Made by a program: the position numbers and the translations under genes
DNA from: Escherichia coli
GTDB lineage: Bacteria; Pseudomonadota; Gammaproteobacteria; Enterobacterales; Enterobacteriaceae
Reading direction: 5' to 3' (one strand)
Length of the DNA: 64,000 nt
Assembly: GCF_044324875.1 (NCBI RefSeq)
Contig: NZ_CP172185.1
Notes under the pieces: model-generated
Seen by the model: only the letters and a program-made list of their open reading frames with translations
What the model was told of the DNA's origin: nothing
Database searches by the model: none
Shown here: piece by piece, positions 6,185 to 46,463 of the stretch
How positions within the stretch are numbered: the first letter of the stretch is position 1
Layout: each line of letters begins with the position of its first letter

Positions 6185-6207
6185 TCTTCACTCTGCGTTA
6201 AGCAAAT

Positions 6208-6320
<113 letters not shown>

Positions 6321-6341
6321 ACTGATAAGCCAGGCGAAATA

Positions 6342-6806
6342 ATGAATTATCATCAGTACTATCCTGTCGACATCGTCAACGGCCCCGGCACTCGCTGTAC
6401 CCTGTTTGTCTCCGGGTGTGTTCATGAATGCCCCGGTTGCTATAACAAAAGCACCTGGCGGGTAAATTCCGGTCAGCCATTTACCAAAGCAATGGAAGAC
6501 CAGATCATTAACGATCTAAATGACACTCGCATCAAACGCCAGGGTATTTCCCTCTCCGGCGGCGATCCGCTGCATCCGCAAAACGTGCCGGATATTCTGA
6601 AACTGGTACAACGCATCCGCGCCGAATGTCCGGGTAAAGACATCTGGGTGTGGACAGGCTATAAACTCGACGAACTCAACGCTGCGCAAATGCAGGTTGT
6701 TGATTTGATTAACGTACTGGTCGACGGCAAATTTGTGCAGGATTTAAAAGACCCTTCCCTGATCTGGCGCGGCAGCAGCAATCAGGTGGTGCATCATTTG
6801 CGATGA
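6342..6806 (+). CDS. nrdG: Anaerobic RNR activating enzyme (radical SAM)
   Basis: 154-aa ORF with CxxxCxxC-like cluster (CVHECPGCYN) directly downstream of nrdD. Confidence 0.95.
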   Translation: MNYHQYYPVDIVNGPGTRCTLFVSGCVHECPGCYNKSTWRVNSGQPFTKAMEDQIINDLNDTRIKRQGISLSGGDPLHPQNVPDILKLVQRIRAECPGKDIWVWTGYKLDELNAAQMQVVDLINVLVDGKFVQDLKDPSLIWRGSSNQVVHHLR

Positions 6807-6850
6807 TAAGTTCCCTGTTACCTGAGTGCAGGCAACAGGGAAATAAGGAA

Positions 6851-9444: not shown

Positions 9445-9550
9445 TGCCGGATACGGTGCACCTGTAGGCCTGATAAGACGCATCAAGCGTCGCATCAGGC
9501 ACTATGCTCAAATGCCGGATGCGGCGTAAACGCCTTATCCGGCATACACA
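9445..9550. repeat. REP/BIME cluster
   Basis: GCCGGATACGG...TGTAGGCCTGATAAGACGC...GCGTCGCATCAGGC...GCCGGATGCGGCGTAAACGCCTTATCCGGC units between yjgA and mpl. Confidence 0.85.
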
Positions 9551-14165: not shown

Positions 14166-15668
14166 TTACACCGCAATGGCGTTCATGATCGCCGGAACGG
14201 AAAGCTCTGCCAGCGGGATCTCCGCCACCTGTTTGCGATCGCGCATGATAATCACCCGGTCGGCATAGCCCACCAGCTCTTCCAGCTCGGAGGAGATCAC
14301 CAGCAGCGCCAGCCCATCGGCGCACAGCGTTTCAATCAGGCGGATGATCTCGGCGTGGGCACCAACATCAATTCCGCGCGTTGGCTCGTCGAGGATCAGA
14401 AATTGCGGTCGGGTCAGTAGCCAACGTGAAAGCAACACTTTTTGCTGATTGCCGCCGGAGAGAAATTCAATCGGTTGTTCGGTGGAAGGTGTGCGAATGC
14501 CAAGCTGGCGGATAAAGCGTTCGGCAATCTCTTGCTGCTCTTTGCGGGAAATTGGTCGCAGCCAGCCGCGCTGGGCCTGGAGAGCGAGGATGATATTTTC
14601 CCGCACCGAGGCGGCGGCGATAATGCCATCGGTTTTCCTGTCTTCCGGGCAGAAGCCAATGCCCAGTACCGAAGCCTGATGTGGCGATCGCAGGGTTTGC
14701 GGTTTGCCTTTGATCAACGCCGTGCCGCTATCTGCGGGTTTGATACCGAAGATCACTTCGGCGGTTTCGGTACGTCCGGATCCCAGCAGACCTGCCAGAC
14801 CGACGATTTCGCCGGGGCGCACTTCGAGATCAAACGGTGCGATCGTTCCTTTTTTGCCGTAATTTTTGAACGCGGCAACGGGTTTGTCGCTCAGCAATGT
14901 TCGTCCGGCACGCTGTAGCGCGTGGGTGTCCAGCTCGCGCCCCAGCATCATTTTTACCAGTTCGATCTGCGGTAGCTCGCGGGTTTCCCGACAGCCTACG
15001 AAACTGCCGTTGCGTAAGACGGTGATCCGATCGCTGACCTGATAGACCTGATCGAGAAAGTGAGTAACGAAGATCAGGCTGACGCCGCGATCGCGCAACT
15101 GACGCATCAGGCCAAACAGCAACTCTACTTCCTGAGTGTCGAGGCTGGCGGTGGGTTCATCGAGGATCAGCACTTTGGCGGAGAGATCGATGGCCCGGCA
15201 AATGGCGACGATTTGCTGCATCGCCACTGAAAAGCGGTTGAGCGGTTCCCGCACGTCGAGGGAGAAACCGTAAGATGCCATCAGTTCGGTGGCGCGCTTT
15301 TCCATCTCTTTACGGCGTAGAAGGCCGAAACGTTTGGGTTCGCGACCTATGAATAGATTATCAGCGACCGACATATTGGGTAGCAGGTTGACTTCCTGAT
15401 AGACGGTGCCGATGCCGAGTTGTTGTGCATGGGCGGTATTTTTCGGTGAGATAGTCTGGCCTTCCAGCCAGATGGTGCCACGATCGGCGTGGTAGACACC
15501 GGTTAATGCTTTGATTAGCGTTGATTTTCCCGCCCCGTTTTCACCGAGCAGCGCCATGATTTCACCACGGCGCAGGCTGAAATCAACGTTGTCTAACGCT
15601 TTGACGCCGGGGAAAAATTTACTTAATCCTTCGGTGCGGAGGATTTCCTGGTGTTGGTCGGTCGTCAT
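14166..15668 (-). CDS. ytfR: Sugar ABC transporter ATP-binding protein (duplicated ABC domains)
   Basis: 500-aa ORF with two Walker A motifs (GENGAGKST ; GLLGSGRTE) and two signature motifs. Confidence 0.95.
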   Translation of the reverse strand: MTTDQHQEILRTEGLSKFFPGVKALDNVDFSLRRGEIMALLGENGAGKSTLIKALTGVYHADRGTIWLEGQTISPKNTAHAQQLGIGTVYQEVNLLPNMSVADNLFIGREPKRFGLLRRKEMEKRATELMASYGFSLDVREPLNRFSVAMQQIVAICRAIDLSAKVLILDEPTASLDTQEVELLFGLMRQLRDRGVSLIFVTHFLDQVYQVSDRITVLRNGSFVGCRETRELPQIELVKMMLGRELDTHALQRAGRTLLSDKPVAAFKNYGKKGTIAPFDLEVRPGEIVGLAGLLGSGRTETAEVIFGIKPADSGTALIKGKPQTLRSPHQASVLGIGFCPEDRKTDGIIAAASVRENIILALQAQRGWLRPISRKEQQEIAERFIRQLGIRTPSTEQPIEFLSGGNQQKVLLSRWLLTRPQFLILDEPTRGIDVGAHAEIIRLIETLCADGLALLVISSELEELVGYADRVIIMRDRKQVAEIPLAELSVPAIMNAIAV

Positions 15669-15699: not shown

Positions 15700-15805
15700 A
15701 GGCATGATAAGACGCGGTAAGCGTCGCATCAGGCTTCAGTGCACCATCGCCGGATGCGGCGCGAGCGCCTTATCCGGCCTACGAATCGGCATCAGGCATA
15801 GCAAC
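15700..15805. repeat. REP/BIME cluster
   Basis: GCATGATAAGACGCGGTAAGCGTCGCATCAGGC ... GCCGGATGCGGCGCGAGCGCCTTATCCGGCCTACG units between ytfR and ytfQ. Confidence 0.85.
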
Positions 15806-18278: not shown

Positions 18279-18489
18279 CTGCACCTCCTTAAGTTATACA
18301 AAGTATAACTCACGGTGCTACAGGAAACGTTTTACCCCTGCGCATTTGTGAACGCCAGCAGAGTTTTTTATGCGTTAACAGATATGGAAAGCGGCTCGGA
18401 GAGAAAAGCAAAAGGTGAGGGAATTACAAAACAGAATGCGAGTCGTCTCGCAAAAAACAACGCCACCCGAAGGTGGCGTATGCGTATGG

Positions 18490-18831
18490 TTACTTATCCC
18501 TGTCTAACCAGTCGCCGCTTTCAATTAGCTTTAATCCATCGACGGGTCGTTGATAAACGTACATCCATGCACTCCCGTACGGCGTCTGAATCAACTGGCG
18601 CGCGTATTCACCGCCCCTGGTGCGCAAGGCATCAAGTTCGGCCAGCGTGGCGTTGTCAATACGATAAACTTCACCGTGTACTGTTCCGTTCCCCGGAACT
18701 GCGCCTGGATAGTGGCCCAGGCTATACAACTGGTAGTTATCGATACTGAAATCGCCCAGTAACTGGGCATTGGTCATCCAGTGACTGTTGCCTTGTTTGT
18801 GGCGTAAACTGCCGTAGACAAATATTCGCAT
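18490..18831 (-). CDS. ytfP: Gamma-glutamylcyclotransferase-like protein YtfP
   Basis: 113-aa ORF MRIFVYGSLRHKQGNSHWM... (GGCT/AIG2 fold, YGSL motif). Confidence 0.92.
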   Translation of the reverse strand: MRIFVYGSLRHKQGNSHWMTNAQLLGDFSIDNYQLYSLGHYPGAVPGNGTVHGEVYRIDNATLAELDALRTRGGEYARQLIQTPYGSAWMYVYQRPVDGLKLIESGDWLDRDK

Positions 18832-18833
18832 TG

Positions 18834-24385
<5,552 letters not shown>

Positions 24386-24548
24386 TTAAACGGCTTAACA
24401 AAAATCCAGTAATATGGATTAAAAAGCAGACTAAACCCCAAATATTTCTTATGTTTTACTTTAGACCTATTCACAGCGGTTATTGTGTGCAAATACGCCT
24501 CTTGTTACAACCTTAACCCCAATGACCGATTTTCGGGAGAGCGACACC

Positions 24549-25187
24549 ATGAGTTTATTTGATAAAAAGCATCTGGTTTCCCCCGCCGATGCCCTGCCTG
24601 GACGTAACACCCCGATGCCCGTAGCCACACTGCATGCGGTCAACGGTCACTCAATGACCAATGTACCTGACGGAATGGAGATTGCCATTTTTGCGATGGG
24701 TTGTTTCTGGGGTGTGGAGCGTCTGTTCTGGCAGTTACCCGGCGTTTACAGCACCGCCGCAGGCTATACCGGCGGCTAAACGCCAAATCCGACTTATCGG
24801 GAAGTGTGCTCCGGTGATACTGGTCATGCCGAAGCGGTACGCATTGTTTACGATCCTTCCGTCATCAGCTATGAGCAGTTGCTACAGGTATTTTGGGAGA
24901 ATCACGATCCCGCCCAGGGAATGCGTCAGGGCAATGACCACGGCACGCAGTATCGTTCAGCGATTTATCCGCTGACCCCAGAACAGGATGCTGCTGCTCG
25001 CGCCAGTCTGGAACGTTTTCAGGCGGCGATGCTTGCCGCCGATGACGATCGTCGCATCACCACGGAAATTGCTAACGCCACACCGTTTTATTATGCCGAA
25101 GATGACCACCAGCAATATCTGCATAAAAACCCGTATGGTTACTGTGGAATTGGCGGAATTGGCGTCTGTCTGCCGCCGGAAGCATAG
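24549..25187 (+). pseudogene. msrA: Peptide methionine sulfoxide reductase MsrA interrupted by in-frame TAA at codon 77 (24777-24779)
   Basis: Frame from ATG 24549 reads [10 protein letters not shown]...[31 protein letters not shown] then TAA, then continues in the same frame [27 protein letters not shown]... to 25187 (ORF track splits it into 24483..24779 and 24804..25187). MsrA family has a conserved Tyr at this position. Confidence 0.85.
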
Positions 25188-25231
25188 CGTTACGGGTACA
25201 AATGTAGATTGTTGATAAAGTGCTATTTGTC

Positions 25232-25332
25232 TATGCCGGATGCGGCGTAAACGCCTTGCCAGGCCTACAAAATCGTCCAAAATCAATATATTGTGGGGAC
25301 TGCGTAGGCCTGATCGGCATAGCGCATCAGCC
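25232..25332. repeat. REP/BIME cluster
   Basis: TGCCGGATGCGGCGTAAACGCCTTGCCAGGCCTACA ... TGCGTAGGCCTGATCGGCATAGCGCATCAG units after msrA. Confidence 0.85.
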
Positions 25333-25509
25333 AGTATTTCATTTATCAGCAGTCTGAATTTTAACCCTCTGGCGGCTTTACAGTACCTTACGCTATACTA
25401 GCCACTGAAAATGCCGGTTCACTTTCTTCGAATCGGCTTTCAATGTGTATTTCACACAAATTAATCAACTTCCCCTTCCGAGGATCTGGCCTGAAAGGTC
25501 GGATAAGAT

Positions 25510-26853
25510 ATGTTAAACAGTATTTTAGTCATACTCTGTTTGATCGCTGTAAGTGCGTTCTTCTCGATGTCCGAGATCTCGCTTGCCGCTTCACGCAAAA
25601 TCAAACTTAAACTGCTGGCTGATGAAGGCAATATAAATGCCCAACGCGTTCTGAATATGCAGGAAAATCCCGGCATGTTCTTTACCGTGGTCCAAATCGG
25701 TCTGAACGCAGTGGCGATTCTCGGCGGTATCGTCGGTGATGCGGCATTTTCTCCAGCTTTTCACAGCCTGTTCTCCCGCTATATGTCGGCAGAACTCTCT
25801 GAGCAACTGAGCTTTATTCTCTCTTTCTCGTTAGTGACTGGCATGTTTATCCTGTTTGCGGATTTAACCCCGAAACGCATCGGTATGATTGCGCCAGAAG
25901 CGGTGGCTTTGCGTATCATCAACCCGATGCGCTTCTGCCTGTACGTTTGCACCCCGCTGGTGTGGTTCTTCAACGGCCTGGCGAACATAATCTTCCGTAT
26001 TTTCAAACTGCCAATGGTACGTAAAGATGACATCACTTCTGATGACATCTACGCGGTAGTGGAAGCCGGTGCGCTGGCGGGCGTGTTACGTAAACAGGAA
26101 CACGAGCTGATTGAAAACGTCTTTGAGCTGGAATCCCGTACCGTTCCGTCGTCAATGACACCGCGTGAAAACGTGATTTGGTTTGATCTCCACGAAGATG
26201 AGCAAAGTCTGAAGAATAAGGTGGCGGAACATCCGCACTCTAAGTTCCTCGTCTGTAATGAAGATATTGACCACATCATCGGCTATGTCGATTCTAAAGA
26301 CCTGCTGAACCGCGTGCTGGCTAACCAAAGCCTGGCACTGAACAGCGGCGTACAAATTCGCAACACGCTGATTGTGCCGGATACGTTAACCCTTTCAGAA
26401 GCGTTGGAAAGTTTTAAAACCGCAGGTGAAGACTTCGCGGTGATCATGAACGAGTACGCGCTGGTAGTGGGGATCATCACCCTCAACGACGTGATGACCA
26501 CGCTGATGGGCGATCTGGTCGGTCAGGGGCTGGAAGAGCAGATTGTCGCCCGTGATGAGAACTCATGGCTGATTGACGGCGGCACCCCGATTGACGACGT
26601 CATGCGCGTGCTGGATATTGACGAGTTCCCGCAGTCGGGCAACTACGAAACCATCGGCGGCTTTATGATGTTTATGCTGCGTAAGATCCCGAAACGCACC
26701 GATTCGGTGAAATTCGCCGGCTACAAATTTGAAGTGGTGGATATCGATAACTACCGCATCGACCAGCTGCTGGTGACCCGAATCGACAGCAAGGCCACCG
26801 CCCTTTCGCCAAAACTGCCTGACGCTAAAGATAAAGAAGAAAGCGTCGCGTAA
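25510..26853 (+). CDS. ytfL: CNNM/CorC-family membrane protein YtfL (PaeA, polyamine exporter) with CBS pair and CorC_HlyC domain
   Basis: 447-aa ORF MLNSILVILCLIAVSAFFSMSEISLAASRKIKLKLLADEGN... (DUF21-CBS-CorC architecture). Confidence 0.94.
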   Translation: MLNSILVILCLIAVSAFFSMSEISLAASRKIKLKLLADEGNINAQRVLNMQENPGMFFTVVQIGLNAVAILGGIVGDAAFSPAFHSLFSRYMSAELSEQLSFILSFSLVTGMFILFADLTPKRIGMIAPEAVALRIINPMRFCLYVCTPLVWFFNGLANIIFRIFKLPMVRKDDITSDDIYAVVEAGALAGVLRKQEHELIENVFELESRTVPSSMTPRENVIWFDLHEDEQSLKNKVAEHPHSKFLVCNEDIDHIIGYVDSKDLLNRVLANQSLALNSGVQIRNTLIVPDTLTLSEALESFKTAGEDFAVIMNEYALVVGIITLNDVMTTLMGDLVGQGLEEQIVARDENSWLIDGGTPIDDVMRVLDIDEFPQSGNYETIGGFMMFMLRKIPKRTDSVKFAGYKFEVVDIDNYRIDQLLVTRIDSKATALSPKLPDAKDKEESVA

Positions 26854-29953: not shown

Positions 29954-30142
29954 TTCTCCACCTCGTCTCTGTGAGCGGTGTTAACTTATTGTTTTACTTA
30001 TACCCTATCGTTAATGAATGCGCCAACTGTGATAGTGTCATCATTTTCAAAGCGTAAAATTGTGGCATTCTTCACTGTTCTATAAGTAAGACGTTTATTC
30101 TCCCTTTTCTTTCGTATTCCCGATGATAAAAGGATGTCCCTG

Positions 30143-41499: not shown

Positions 41500-41720
41500 G
41501 AAACCATACTGATATGTTGACATCCTCCACGCCCTGAAGGACGTGGATCCCTGCTACGTTCAGGCTGTCGCCTAAATCATTTCGGGGGGTTCCTGCTTCA
41601 ACGAGCGGCCTGACTGCACCATCTCTCCACAGGCAAGAACGGCGTGCCCCGCCGCTAAAATGTTACGAGCGCCATTTACATCGGCGTTCGCTGTATATCC
41701 ACATGCCTGGCATCTGAATT
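41500..41720 (-). ncRNA. Predicted omega (re)RNA of TnpB, overlapping tnpB 3' end and right end of the IS; putative guide = flank just beyond RE (about 41501-41516)
   Basis: Inference from established TnpB biology (guide RNA derived from tnpB 3' end/RE); presence of RE hairpin at 41527-41546. No transcript evidence. Confidence 0.35.
41527..41546. repeat. IS right-end subterminal hairpin
   Basis: 5-bp + 2-bp stem with single mismatch and TGAA tetraloop; near-identical copy at other end of element. Confidence 0.7.
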
Positions 41721-42768
41721 TACTTTGTGACAGGCGATTTTCTTTCGCTGTATGACCACAGCACGCGCAACGCTGGCTTGTGTACGCTGGCGGAACAGCA
41801 AGCACCTGACCGCCACGCCAGAGCTGCTTGTACTCAAGCTGGCGGCGCATTTCATACCAGCCCTGATCCAGTATCGAACGGTTTAAACCTGATTTTGCCC
41901 GGACATTGCGCCCCGGCTGGCTGACCGTACCCGCTGCTGACTTTGACATGTTGCTGACCTTCAAATCCTCAATGACTATCATTGCGTGGTTTTTGCTGAC
42001 GGTCGTTGTGACTTTGTGAAGGTAGTCCCTGCGGATATTTGCGATACAGGAATGCAGTCGCTGTATTTTGCGTTTCTGCTTCTGCCAGTTATTGCTGAAT
42101 TTGACCTTGCGGCTTAACTGTCGCTGAAGTCTCGCCAGCTTCTTCTGGTTTTTCTGAAAACTGTTTACAGGCTCAAAGACTGTGCCATCTGACAGCGTGG
42201 CGAGTTTAGCCACGCCAGCATCCAGCCCGACCATTGATGCTGAAGGGTGAACCGGAGTTGATACTTCATTTTCAGTCTGAATACTGATGTACCACTTACC
42301 GCAGGACTGGCTGACAGTGACATTTTTCACAACACCCGTGACCTGACGGCTATTCCGGTAGCGCATCCAGCCAAGTTTCGGCAGAAAAATACGGCTGTTT
42401 TCCTGATCGAGCTTAACGCCCTGCGGGTAGCGGAATGCATCATTCTGTCCCCGCTTTTTGAATCGGGGAAAAGCAGCCCGCTTCTGGAAGAAGTTTTTGT
42501 AAGCCCGCTCAAGGTCTTTCAGTGACTGTTGCAATGGCTGTGAGGGCGAATCTTTAAGCCATTGCGTTTCAGTGGCGTTTTTCCACTCAACCAGCCAGGA
42601 AGCCATTTTCCCGTAAGGGATGTATTTATTACCGGCCTCATGATTCTCATTCTGACGTGCCAGAGCACGATTGAAAACGAAACGACATGCGCCTGCGAAG
42701 CGCCTCATTTCACGCTCCTGTTGACCACCGGGTCTTAACTGGAATTTAAATGCCTGTAGTCGTTTCAC
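41572..42768 (-). CDS. tnpB: TnpB (IS605 OrfB) RNA-guided endonuclease, apparently intact
   Basis: 398-aa [39 protein letters not shown]...; RuvC-I D (MVGLDAGV), RuvC-II E (MIVIEDLKV), Zn finger CACCGH...CQACG and RuvC-III D ([10 protein letters not shown]) all present. Confidence 0.92.
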
Positions 42769-42775
42769 AGGCCAA

Positions 42776-43390
42776 ATGATACTTTGGTCTGTGAGAAAAG
42801 AAACCGATATCCGGCGTGGAAGGCATTGTGTTTTCCTGATGCATGTTCACCAGGTCTTTGTCACCAAATACCGACGTCAGATTTTTGACCATGACGCGAC
42901 AGAAAAACTACGCACTTACTTTTCAAATGTATGTGCTGATTTTGAAGCTGAACTGGTTGAAATGGATGGCGAACCAGATCACGTCCATTTGTTAATTAAC
43001 TATCCTCCCAAACTGGCGATATCCAGTCTGGTAAACAGCCTCAAAGGCGTATCGGGTAGGTTACTGCGACGAGATCGACCAGATATTGCAGTCAGGTATT
43101 ACTACAAAGGCGTTTTGTGGAGTCCTGGCTATTTTGCCAGTAGCTGCGGAGGTGCGCCAATATCCGTCATCCGCCAATACATTGAACAACAGCAAACACC
43201 TGATCAGGTGGAAAACCGCGCCTTATATCCCCGCCCTGAAGGACGGGGTTTTACGGCGCACCGGATAAACCAGGCCAAGCGTATGCTGGTTGATCAAATA
43301 ATATCCCCCAAGCGCAGCAATATTAATATTCACCTGCAATGGGTCGATATCTGGCTTAAAAATATTGTGTTTCCTCCCTTCATCCAATAA
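42776..43390 (+). CDS. tnpA: IS200-type Y1 (HuH) transposase TnpA, ORF reading through the IS left end into flanking DNA
   Basis: ORF contains KYRRQIF, HuH motif HVHLLI and catalytic-Tyr region [11 protein letters not shown]...QYIEQQ; typical TnpA ends soon after, but here no stop occurs until 43388-43390, beyond the end hairpin (which encodes [10 protein letters not shown]). Confidence 0.8.
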
Positions 43391-43483
43391 GGATTCCATT
43401 AACTGCAAGTGCGCATGATTAATTTCTAAGAGACACTGTGATTTTGCATAATGCACACCTTTACTTTGGTTTTCACTATGCAC
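43223..43483 (-). pseudogene. ytfA-like ORF, 3' end replaced by IS-end sequence (possible TetR-like C-terminal fragment)
   Basis: 86-codon frame from GTG 43481-43483 ([73 protein letters not shown]...) runs into the IS hairpin ([13 protein letters not shown]). Identity with K-12 ytfA is from position and memory only. Confidence 0.5.
43239..43258. repeat. IS left-end subterminal hairpin
   Basis: CCCCGCCCTGAAGGACGGGG, same architecture as 41527-41546. Confidence 0.7.
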
Positions 43484-43832
43484 AATTTTTAAAAACCAGG
43501 GATTAGCAATATAATAATCCCAGGTAAAATCGATGATTTTTTCAATGGCTTTTTGTGGCTGGTTAACCTGCTGATTAACAAACGCACCGATACCGACAGC
43601 GTAGAATAATTACATACCGCACAACAAGAATGTATGGTGTAAGGCGTTGTCAGTCATCTCCCTCCCTGGGTGCATCGTTATATCCGTGATGAGCGATTTT
43701 TGATATTAATATCTTTCACCATCCGCTATTTTCACTACTTCAGAAAACAAACTTATTTTTATTAATATCGATTCTTTTTCTTTGAGCATTTAACTACGAT
43801 ATTTATAAAAAAATTAAACAGGCAAAAATACA

Positions 43833-45741: not shown

Positions 45742-46155
<414 letters not shown>

Positions 46156-46463
46156 TTATTCAGCCTCCTGTCTGGGTCAGCCGAATCCCGGGGAGGCAAG
46201 GAACGTGTTAAAGGTCGGCTGAAAAATGACGCGTTATAGTACTGACATACCCCGCTAAACTCAAGGCCAGCCGACAAATAAATCTCATCTTTCACCAAAT
46301 CGTACTAACACGCTGATTTGAAGTTCATCACACTTCATCATGGTGTTTTTTTGAACAACTGCATCAGAAATGGTCACCATCAACTTCTTTATCATTGATT
46401 AAAATTAAATCAGAAGATCATCACAGAGGAGAGCACACAAAGTCAGCCGTTGAGGAGGTATCT

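Follow-up and report, generated by a model that had tools for sequence, protein, structure and literature searches.

The closest described counterpart of the locus considered here is msrA of Escherichia coli K-12, which encodes peptide-methionine (S)-S-oxide reductase (UniProt P0A744; structures 1FF3 and 2GT3). In the E. coli enzyme, Cys-51 of the GCFWG motif is the catalytic nucleophile, recycling proceeds via Cys-198 and Cys-206, and roles have been described for Tyr-82 and Glu-94 as well as for Tyr-134 (PMC6316033). Two further reports describe a hypersensitivity of E. coli msrA mutants to reactive oxygen and the attenuation of their Salmonella counterparts in macrophages and mice (PMC3206869; PMC3650055); the substrate of MsrB and MsrC is the R epimer (PMC3206869). 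The laboratory msrA nulls are engineered deletions or insertions. Natural single-gene losses are represented by the sporadic, strain-specific pseudogenes of E. coli, in which a single-base stop inactivates a non-essential core gene in one isolate or small clone. A further point of comparison is template-switch mutation at quasi-palindromes (the Ripley model; the lacZ QP5/QP6 reporters), for which a natural hotspot is known in E. coli thyA and in which the mismatch in an imperfect inverted repeat gives way to the base that the opposite arm prescribes, so that the repeat becomes perfect; further criteria for such mutations are dependence on ExoI/ExoVII, a strand bias, and stimulation by AZT or fluoroquinolones (PMC7202029). 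Finally, programmed stop-codon recoding can also place an in-frame stop with an open frame beyond it in the gene of a redox enzyme, using UGA (selenocysteine), UAG (pyrrolysine) or programmed readthrough; according to PMC9195949, selenocysteine is present in some Msr enzymes of other organisms.

The 64,000-nucleotide stretch of E. coli DNA analysed here (the window) carries the same gene at the same locus as K-12. Its msrA frame runs on the + strand from ATG at 24549 to TAG at 25185–25187, and the gene order tamA-msrA-paeA (ytfL) is collinear with that of the annotated genomes Ecol_316 and GN25. Comparison with E. coli MsrA, a step proposed in the preliminary description, bears out the identification: the repaired protein is identical to both 1FF3 and 2GT3 at 211 of 212 residues, and it matches PF01625 (PMSR) over residues 46–199 (E = 2e-64). 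The GCFWG motif with its catalytic Cys is present, and its residues are invariant in our MsrA alignment (A1), as are G75, G76 and Y83. By sequence, domain content and synteny, the gene is assigned as the MsrA/PMSR orthologue of E. coli msrA.

This orthologue (24549..25187, +) is interrupted by a premature stop, and we classify it as a pseudogene or null allele. As the preliminary description had reported, an in-frame ochre codon, TAA, is read at 24777–24779 (+), codon 77 of msrA. Relative to 22 complete E. coli genomes, the gene shows one mismatch in 642 bases, a T→A change at 24779 that converts codon 77 from TAT (Tyr) to TAA. The remainder of the frame had also been described as open, and the 135 sense codons beyond the TAA indeed contain no stop. 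A mechanical open reading frame listing therefore gives msrA in two pieces, 24483/24549..24779 and 24804..25187. The N-terminal fragment of 76 codons (24549..24776, +) is the sole part expected to be translated, and it contains the GCFWG motif (codons 51–55; 24699–24713, +), including the TGT codon for the catalytic Cys (24702–24704, +; Cys-51 in mature numbering, with its role taken from PMC6316033). The C-terminal remnant (codons 78–212; 24780..25187, +) is expected to remain untranslated. Within it lie the codons for Tyr-82 (24795–24797, +; the invariant Y83 of the alignment), for Glu-94 and Tyr-134, and for the recycling residues Cys-198 (25143–25145, +) and Cys-206 (25167–25169, +). The Tyr lost at codon 77 had been presented as conserved among MsrA proteins; it does not vary among the Escherichia sequences seen, whereas the five divergent MsrAs of the alignment have D, M, R, D and D at this position.

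Translation would end after 76 residues, giving a product that keeps the catalytic Cys-51 of GCFWG. In mature numbering the stop falls at residue 76, which leaves Cys-51 on a 76-residue peptide and cuts inside the single PMSR domain (residues 46–199). The earlier suggestion that the stop separates the GCFWG Cys from the rest of the enzyme is upheld, with Cys-51 on one side and Tyr-82, Glu-94, Tyr-134, Cys-198 and Cys-206 on the other, and because of this separation neither MsrA fragment is expected to be active. With TAA at codon 77, the gene does not encode the one unbroken polypeptide bearing all six residues that we take as the mark of a functional MsrA. Judged from its sequence, the isolate is predicted to be MsrA-null, the stop almost certainly inactivating the enzyme. 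The strain would lose cytoplasmic repair of both protein-bound and free methionine-(S)-sulfoxide, and by analogy with msrA knock-outs it would tolerate H2O2 and other oxidants less well. Neither BisC, which acts on free methionine-(S)-sulfoxide, nor the periplasmic MsrPQ system substitutes for cytoplasmic repair of protein-bound methionine-(S)-sulfoxide; MsrB, MsrC, BisC and MsrPQ cover other substrates or compartments only. The predicted phenotype, oxidant hypersensitivity together with lost methionine-(S)-sulfoxide reduction, is that of the laboratory msrA nulls, whereas the lesion itself, Y77*, is a point nonsense change that occurs naturally in a wild lineage. Since msrA is monocistronic, no polar effect on its neighbors is expected. 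Such an effect is in any case unlikely: the paeA start lies 323 nt downstream, past REP-like repeats and a match to STnc450 in the msrA-paeA spacer (25391–25448, +; Rfam). A promoter and terminator scan performed no better than on shuffled sequence.

Turning to the distribution of the allele, the exact msrA sequence of the window has no identical record over the gene among 5,426 complete E. coli genomes, in which 22 records are single-base neighbors. A stop at codon 77, whether TAA or TAG, is found in 0 of these 5,426 genomes, and exact-pattern searches for TAA or TAG at this codon likewise gave 0 hits, both in the GTDB species representatives and in contigs of JGI metagenomes. The third base of the codon, base 231 of the gene, is nonetheless polymorphic in a synonymous manner, with TAC in 34 of the 5,426 genomes. 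The lineage of the window is missing from the complete-genome set, as the 22 kb around msrA are at most 98.5% identical to any member. Elsewhere it is well represented: in the protein-position index, the exact TamB of the window is present in 165 blocks and the exact YtfF in 225, all labelled Escherichia coli, and at 20–22 similar places with the TamB/YtfF variants of the lineage, MsrA has its full 212 aa. Two sister assemblies define the change most closely. Draft GCA_044684685.1 is identical to window positions 14834–44607 (29,774 bases) except for T at 24779, and GCA_050232155.1 is identical over 18464–26613 except at the same base. The ancestral codon is TAT in all relatives compared, and for this background the TAA allele turned up in no record other than the window and the Logan assembly of SRR31072984. 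Since the sister assemblies are identical but for 24779, the T→A change reads as a very recent mutation, private to a single isolate or small clone. The proposal of a recent single-base TAT-to-TAA change made from the sequence alone is thereby sustained, with TAT in every relative and a sole difference from the sister assemblies over 29.8 kb.

The segment containing msrA has a history of its own. Two relatives that carry the YtfF variant of the window (L027 and L028) are nearly identical to it outside positions 23660–25989, a 2.3-kb segment spanning the 5′ end of tamA, msrA and the 5′ end of paeA, within which they differ by 21 clustered SNPs. The 22 complete genomes that share the same msrA (bar the stop) have flanks that differ from those of the window; Ecol_316, for example, is 98.8% identical over 6.6 kb. 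From these comparisons, 23660–25989 looks like a homologous-recombination tract that replaced the msrA region in the lineage of the window.

Truncated MsrA proteins recur in public data. Exact 76-aa and 127-aa MsrA fragments are present in the public protein collection, the 76-aa fragment on 98 contigs, compared with at most 10 contigs each for fragments of 75, 80 and 85 aa, 219 contigs for a 62-aa fragment and 70 for one of 84 aa. The 98 contigs do not represent 98 stop carriers, being mostly truncations at contig ends or N-gaps. Real codon-77 stops among the 76-aa records comprise TAA in L004 and L035, which share the background of the window, TAA in L008, and TAG in L003 and L009. Other nonsense alleles include W61*, reached by both TGG→TAG and TGG→TGA in two backgrounds each, and E85* (GAA→TAA), which, with Y77* as TAA or TAG, is seen in public isolates and metagenomes (eight records together, L003, L008 and L009 among them). 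In all, 74 of the 1,908 possible single-base changes in msrA create a stop, and the first 85 codons contain only five routes by which a transition yields a stop, two of them at W61. One further assembly (GCA_001615095.1) has a Nextera transposase adapter, CTGTCTCTTATACACATCT, fused inside msrA together with a duplicated segment, an assembly chimera that mimics a disruption.

The sequence surrounding codon 77 points to a possible origin for the change. The mutated base lies in an inverted repeat whose left arm, GGCGTTTA (24741..24748), contains T24746, the partner of the mutated base, and whose right arm is TAAACGCC (24777..24784; ancestrally TATACGCC). Between the arms, an inner GC-rich stem-loop, CCGCCG ... 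CGGCGG (24754–59 / 24770–75; whole element 24754..24775), is predicted by DNA folding, and the outer stem stacks on it. The ancestral repeat had a single mismatch, T24746/T24779, which the observed A closes; the perfect arm grows from 4 to 8 bp, and among the four bases only A gives 8. The free energy of the single-strand DNA hairpin falls correspondingly to −15.2 kcal/mol (ancestrally −11.8 kcal/mol), and its z to −3.70 (ancestrally −1.75). Thus the base sits in an imperfect repeat and changes to match the other arm, as in quasi-palindrome mutagenesis. Random substitutions created a perfect arm of at least 8 bp through the changed base in 688 of 36,000 cases (1.9%) in this window, which corresponds to p of about 0.02 for a comparison made post hoc. 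As A is the very base needed to perfect the 8-bp inverted repeat, a template-switch origin is suggested, and we regard it tentatively, at somewhat under an even chance, as the route by which T→A at 24779 arose. The msrA change resembles the described template-switch mutations in perfecting an imperfect repeat and differs from those systems in its short arm (8 bp), its 28-nt spacer and a coincidence probability of ~2%.

Whether such an event would recur at this base is a separate matter. The second, independent codon-77 TAA (L008), which lies in another background whose arms are identical, fits a template-switch origin. The codon-77 TAG alleles (L003 and L009) are not templated by the opposite arm, and extending the palindrome mechanism to these TAG alleles, W61* or E85* is unsupported. 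Any hotspot at 24779 would be weak or counter-selected, given that TAA is absent from the complete genomes, the GTDB representatives and the JGI metagenomes, and it is unlikely that msrA base 231 is a template-switch hotspot producing a recurrent, predictable Tyr77-to-ochre stop. Were it one, msrA would be recurrently inactivated, and nulls would be commoner under replication stress (e.g. fluoroquinolone) and might be transiently selected.

We consider Y77* very probably a genuine strain-private nonsense allele of msrA, its null phenotype being the predicted part of this reading. The main alternative, already raised in the preliminary description, is that 24779 reads A through a sequencing or consensus error, the strain really having TAT and an intact msrA. 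The TAA allele is a singleton inside its lineage, and the base immediately follows, on the 3′ side, a GC-rich hairpin and a GGCGGC run, surroundings prone to sequence-specific Illumina errors; such errors are, however, strand-specific and seldom win the consensus. Against an error, A is given by two assemblies, the window and the Logan assembly of the SRR31072984 raw reads, made with a different assembler. Over 19,027 bases, TAA included, the Logan contig SRR31072984_139 matches the window at 100% identity, although SRR31072984 may derive from the window's own isolate, so that the two A records are perhaps not independent (100% identity over 19 kb being uninformative on this point). This contig crosses the codon-77 site without a break or branch; A is therefore the majority k-mer in those reads, and an assembler artefact as its source is excluded. 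Of the error option, then, the assembler part falls and the read-level part is weakened.

Several unrelated assemblies also break or go to N at gene positions 227–230, which could be taken to favor an error, as could the fact that the codon-77 stops in other backgrounds (L003, L008 and L009) all lie on metagenome scaffolds. The breaks are, however, also accounted for by the natural TAT/TAC polymorphism at base 231, and they are partly a matter of ascertainment, the search having targeted fragments of exactly 76 aa. Taken together, a read-level error appears improbable, and with high confidence the codon-77 stop is real. The breaks themselves comprise seven records whose contigs end or go to N at 227–230 (24775–24778), several contigs ending at 229–230. 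In mixed samples they are explained by the TAT/TAC polymorphism, which can break assembly graphs. Two isolate assemblies with N-gaps just before base 231 are left over by this explanation; such gaps possibly reflect a sequence-specific effect on coverage or errors past the GGCGGC hairpin.

Granting a real stop, its loss of msrA could in principle be adaptive, selected in a niche or in culture, as opposed to a chance event that is neutral or mildly harmful. Across the 29.8 kb shared with the sister assembly, the one SNP is a nonsense change, a class to which few of the possible msrA changes belong, and several independent nonsense alleles are present in public data. These searches were, however, aimed at truncated MsrA, and with so very many E. 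coli sequenced, recurrence is to be expected; W61* in particular arises by G→A at TGG, the most frequent type of mutation. Moreover, codon-77 stops are missing from the complete genomes and the allele has not spread in its lineage, and msrA mutants are oxidant-sensitive, those of Salmonella also being attenuated (PMC3206869). Selection for the loss is accordingly quite improbable. In view of the ascertainment, the very large number of E. coli sequences and the W61 transition routes, the set of msrA lesions looks like sporadic loss-of-function variation and does not amount to evidence of selection.

Another possibility is that the stop is real and functionally bypassed, full-length active MsrA being restored by unusually high readthrough or by a suppressor tRNA for ochre codons encoded outside the window. 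Position 77 tolerates other residues in divergent MsrAs (D, M, R), and an inserted Tyr, Lys or Gln would probably give active enzyme; since the position is variable, a suppressor, if present, would probably restore function. The frame downstream of codon 77 is also still entirely open, but this is expected anyway given the recency of the mutation. No tRNA gene lies within the 64-kb window, there is no recoding signal, and a codon-77 stop is conserved in no relative. Both release factors recognize UAA, natural readthrough of which is very low, and natural isolates rarely carry ochre suppressors, which are costly. We consider bypass very unlikely.

Rescue by reinitiation at GTG 24804, yielding a 127-aa C-terminal fragment that functions alone or as a split enzyme with the 76-aa N-terminal fragment, fares still worse. 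E. coli is known to reinitiate translation after premature stops, and the GTG-initiated 127-aa frame (24804..25187, +) begins 24 nt past the stop; gene callers predict it, splitting msrA of the Logan contig into 76 + 127 aa. The 127-aa fragment, however, is without the catalytic Cys-51, the 76-aa fragment is without any substrate-binding or recycling residue, and the split point lies inside the PMSR domain. In addition, the GGGA 1 nt before GTG 24804 gives poor Shine–Dalgarno spacing, and a stable 76 + 127 aa arrangement is found in no relative. A functional restart product is thus extremely unlikely. Programmed recoding is dismissed, as the codon is UAA (not UGA with a SECIS element or UAG with pyl genes) at a variable, non-catalytic residue, with TAT in all relatives, including isolates identical over 29.8 kb, and neither TAA nor TAG at codon 77 in any of the 5,426 genomes. 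An overlapping gene or RNA at codon 77 is likewise rejected, as msrA has no Rfam match and its antisense open reading frames are short, mechanical and unsupported.

Decay of the Shigella type, finally, does not describe this region: some 60 other genes are intact, with no IS insertions and collinearity with GN25, and the proteins of the lineage are labelled Escherichia coli. Among 62 annotated genes compared, a premature stop was found in msrA only, and no IS-sized insertions relative to E. coli GN25 were detected in the collinear window. With its neighbors intact and without IS insertions, msrA differs from the genes of Shigella-type decay and shares the traits of the sporadic pseudogenes of E. 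coli.

Some further features of the window were recorded alongside these comparisons. An IS200/IS605-family tnpB (41560–42768, −) encodes 398 aa, stopping three codons earlier than in GN25 and differing at 10 residues, and in the GN25 region collinear with window positions ~42776–43560 a tnpA is degraded and a TetR/AcrR-family gene is present as fragments; the tnpB region is an old insertion relic. At window positions 6189–6341 and 6802–6850, between nrdG and cybC, both of which are intact, the RelE/RelB-family toxin-antitoxin pair of GN25 is missing. Rfam matches above the gathering score are all as expected for E. coli and, besides STnc450, include the ES239 sRNA upstream of cpdB/cysQ (30020–30142, −), the RpsF leader (46135–46219, −) and two copies of the REP-derived naRNA4 (9467–9544 and 15701–15779, −).

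Together, these results describe an ordinary, recent, strain-private null allele of a kind already known, with no new mechanism, gene or system. The msrA of this isolate is best annotated as a pseudogene, and the relevance of the phenotype is limited to work with this strain. On the evidence of its msrA sequence, the isolate is predicted to withstand peroxide and hypochlorite stress less well, and its fitness in a host may be reduced. If the codon-77 change proved recurrent, msrA would provide a natural chromosomal example of quasi-palindrome template switching in a wild E. coli gene.
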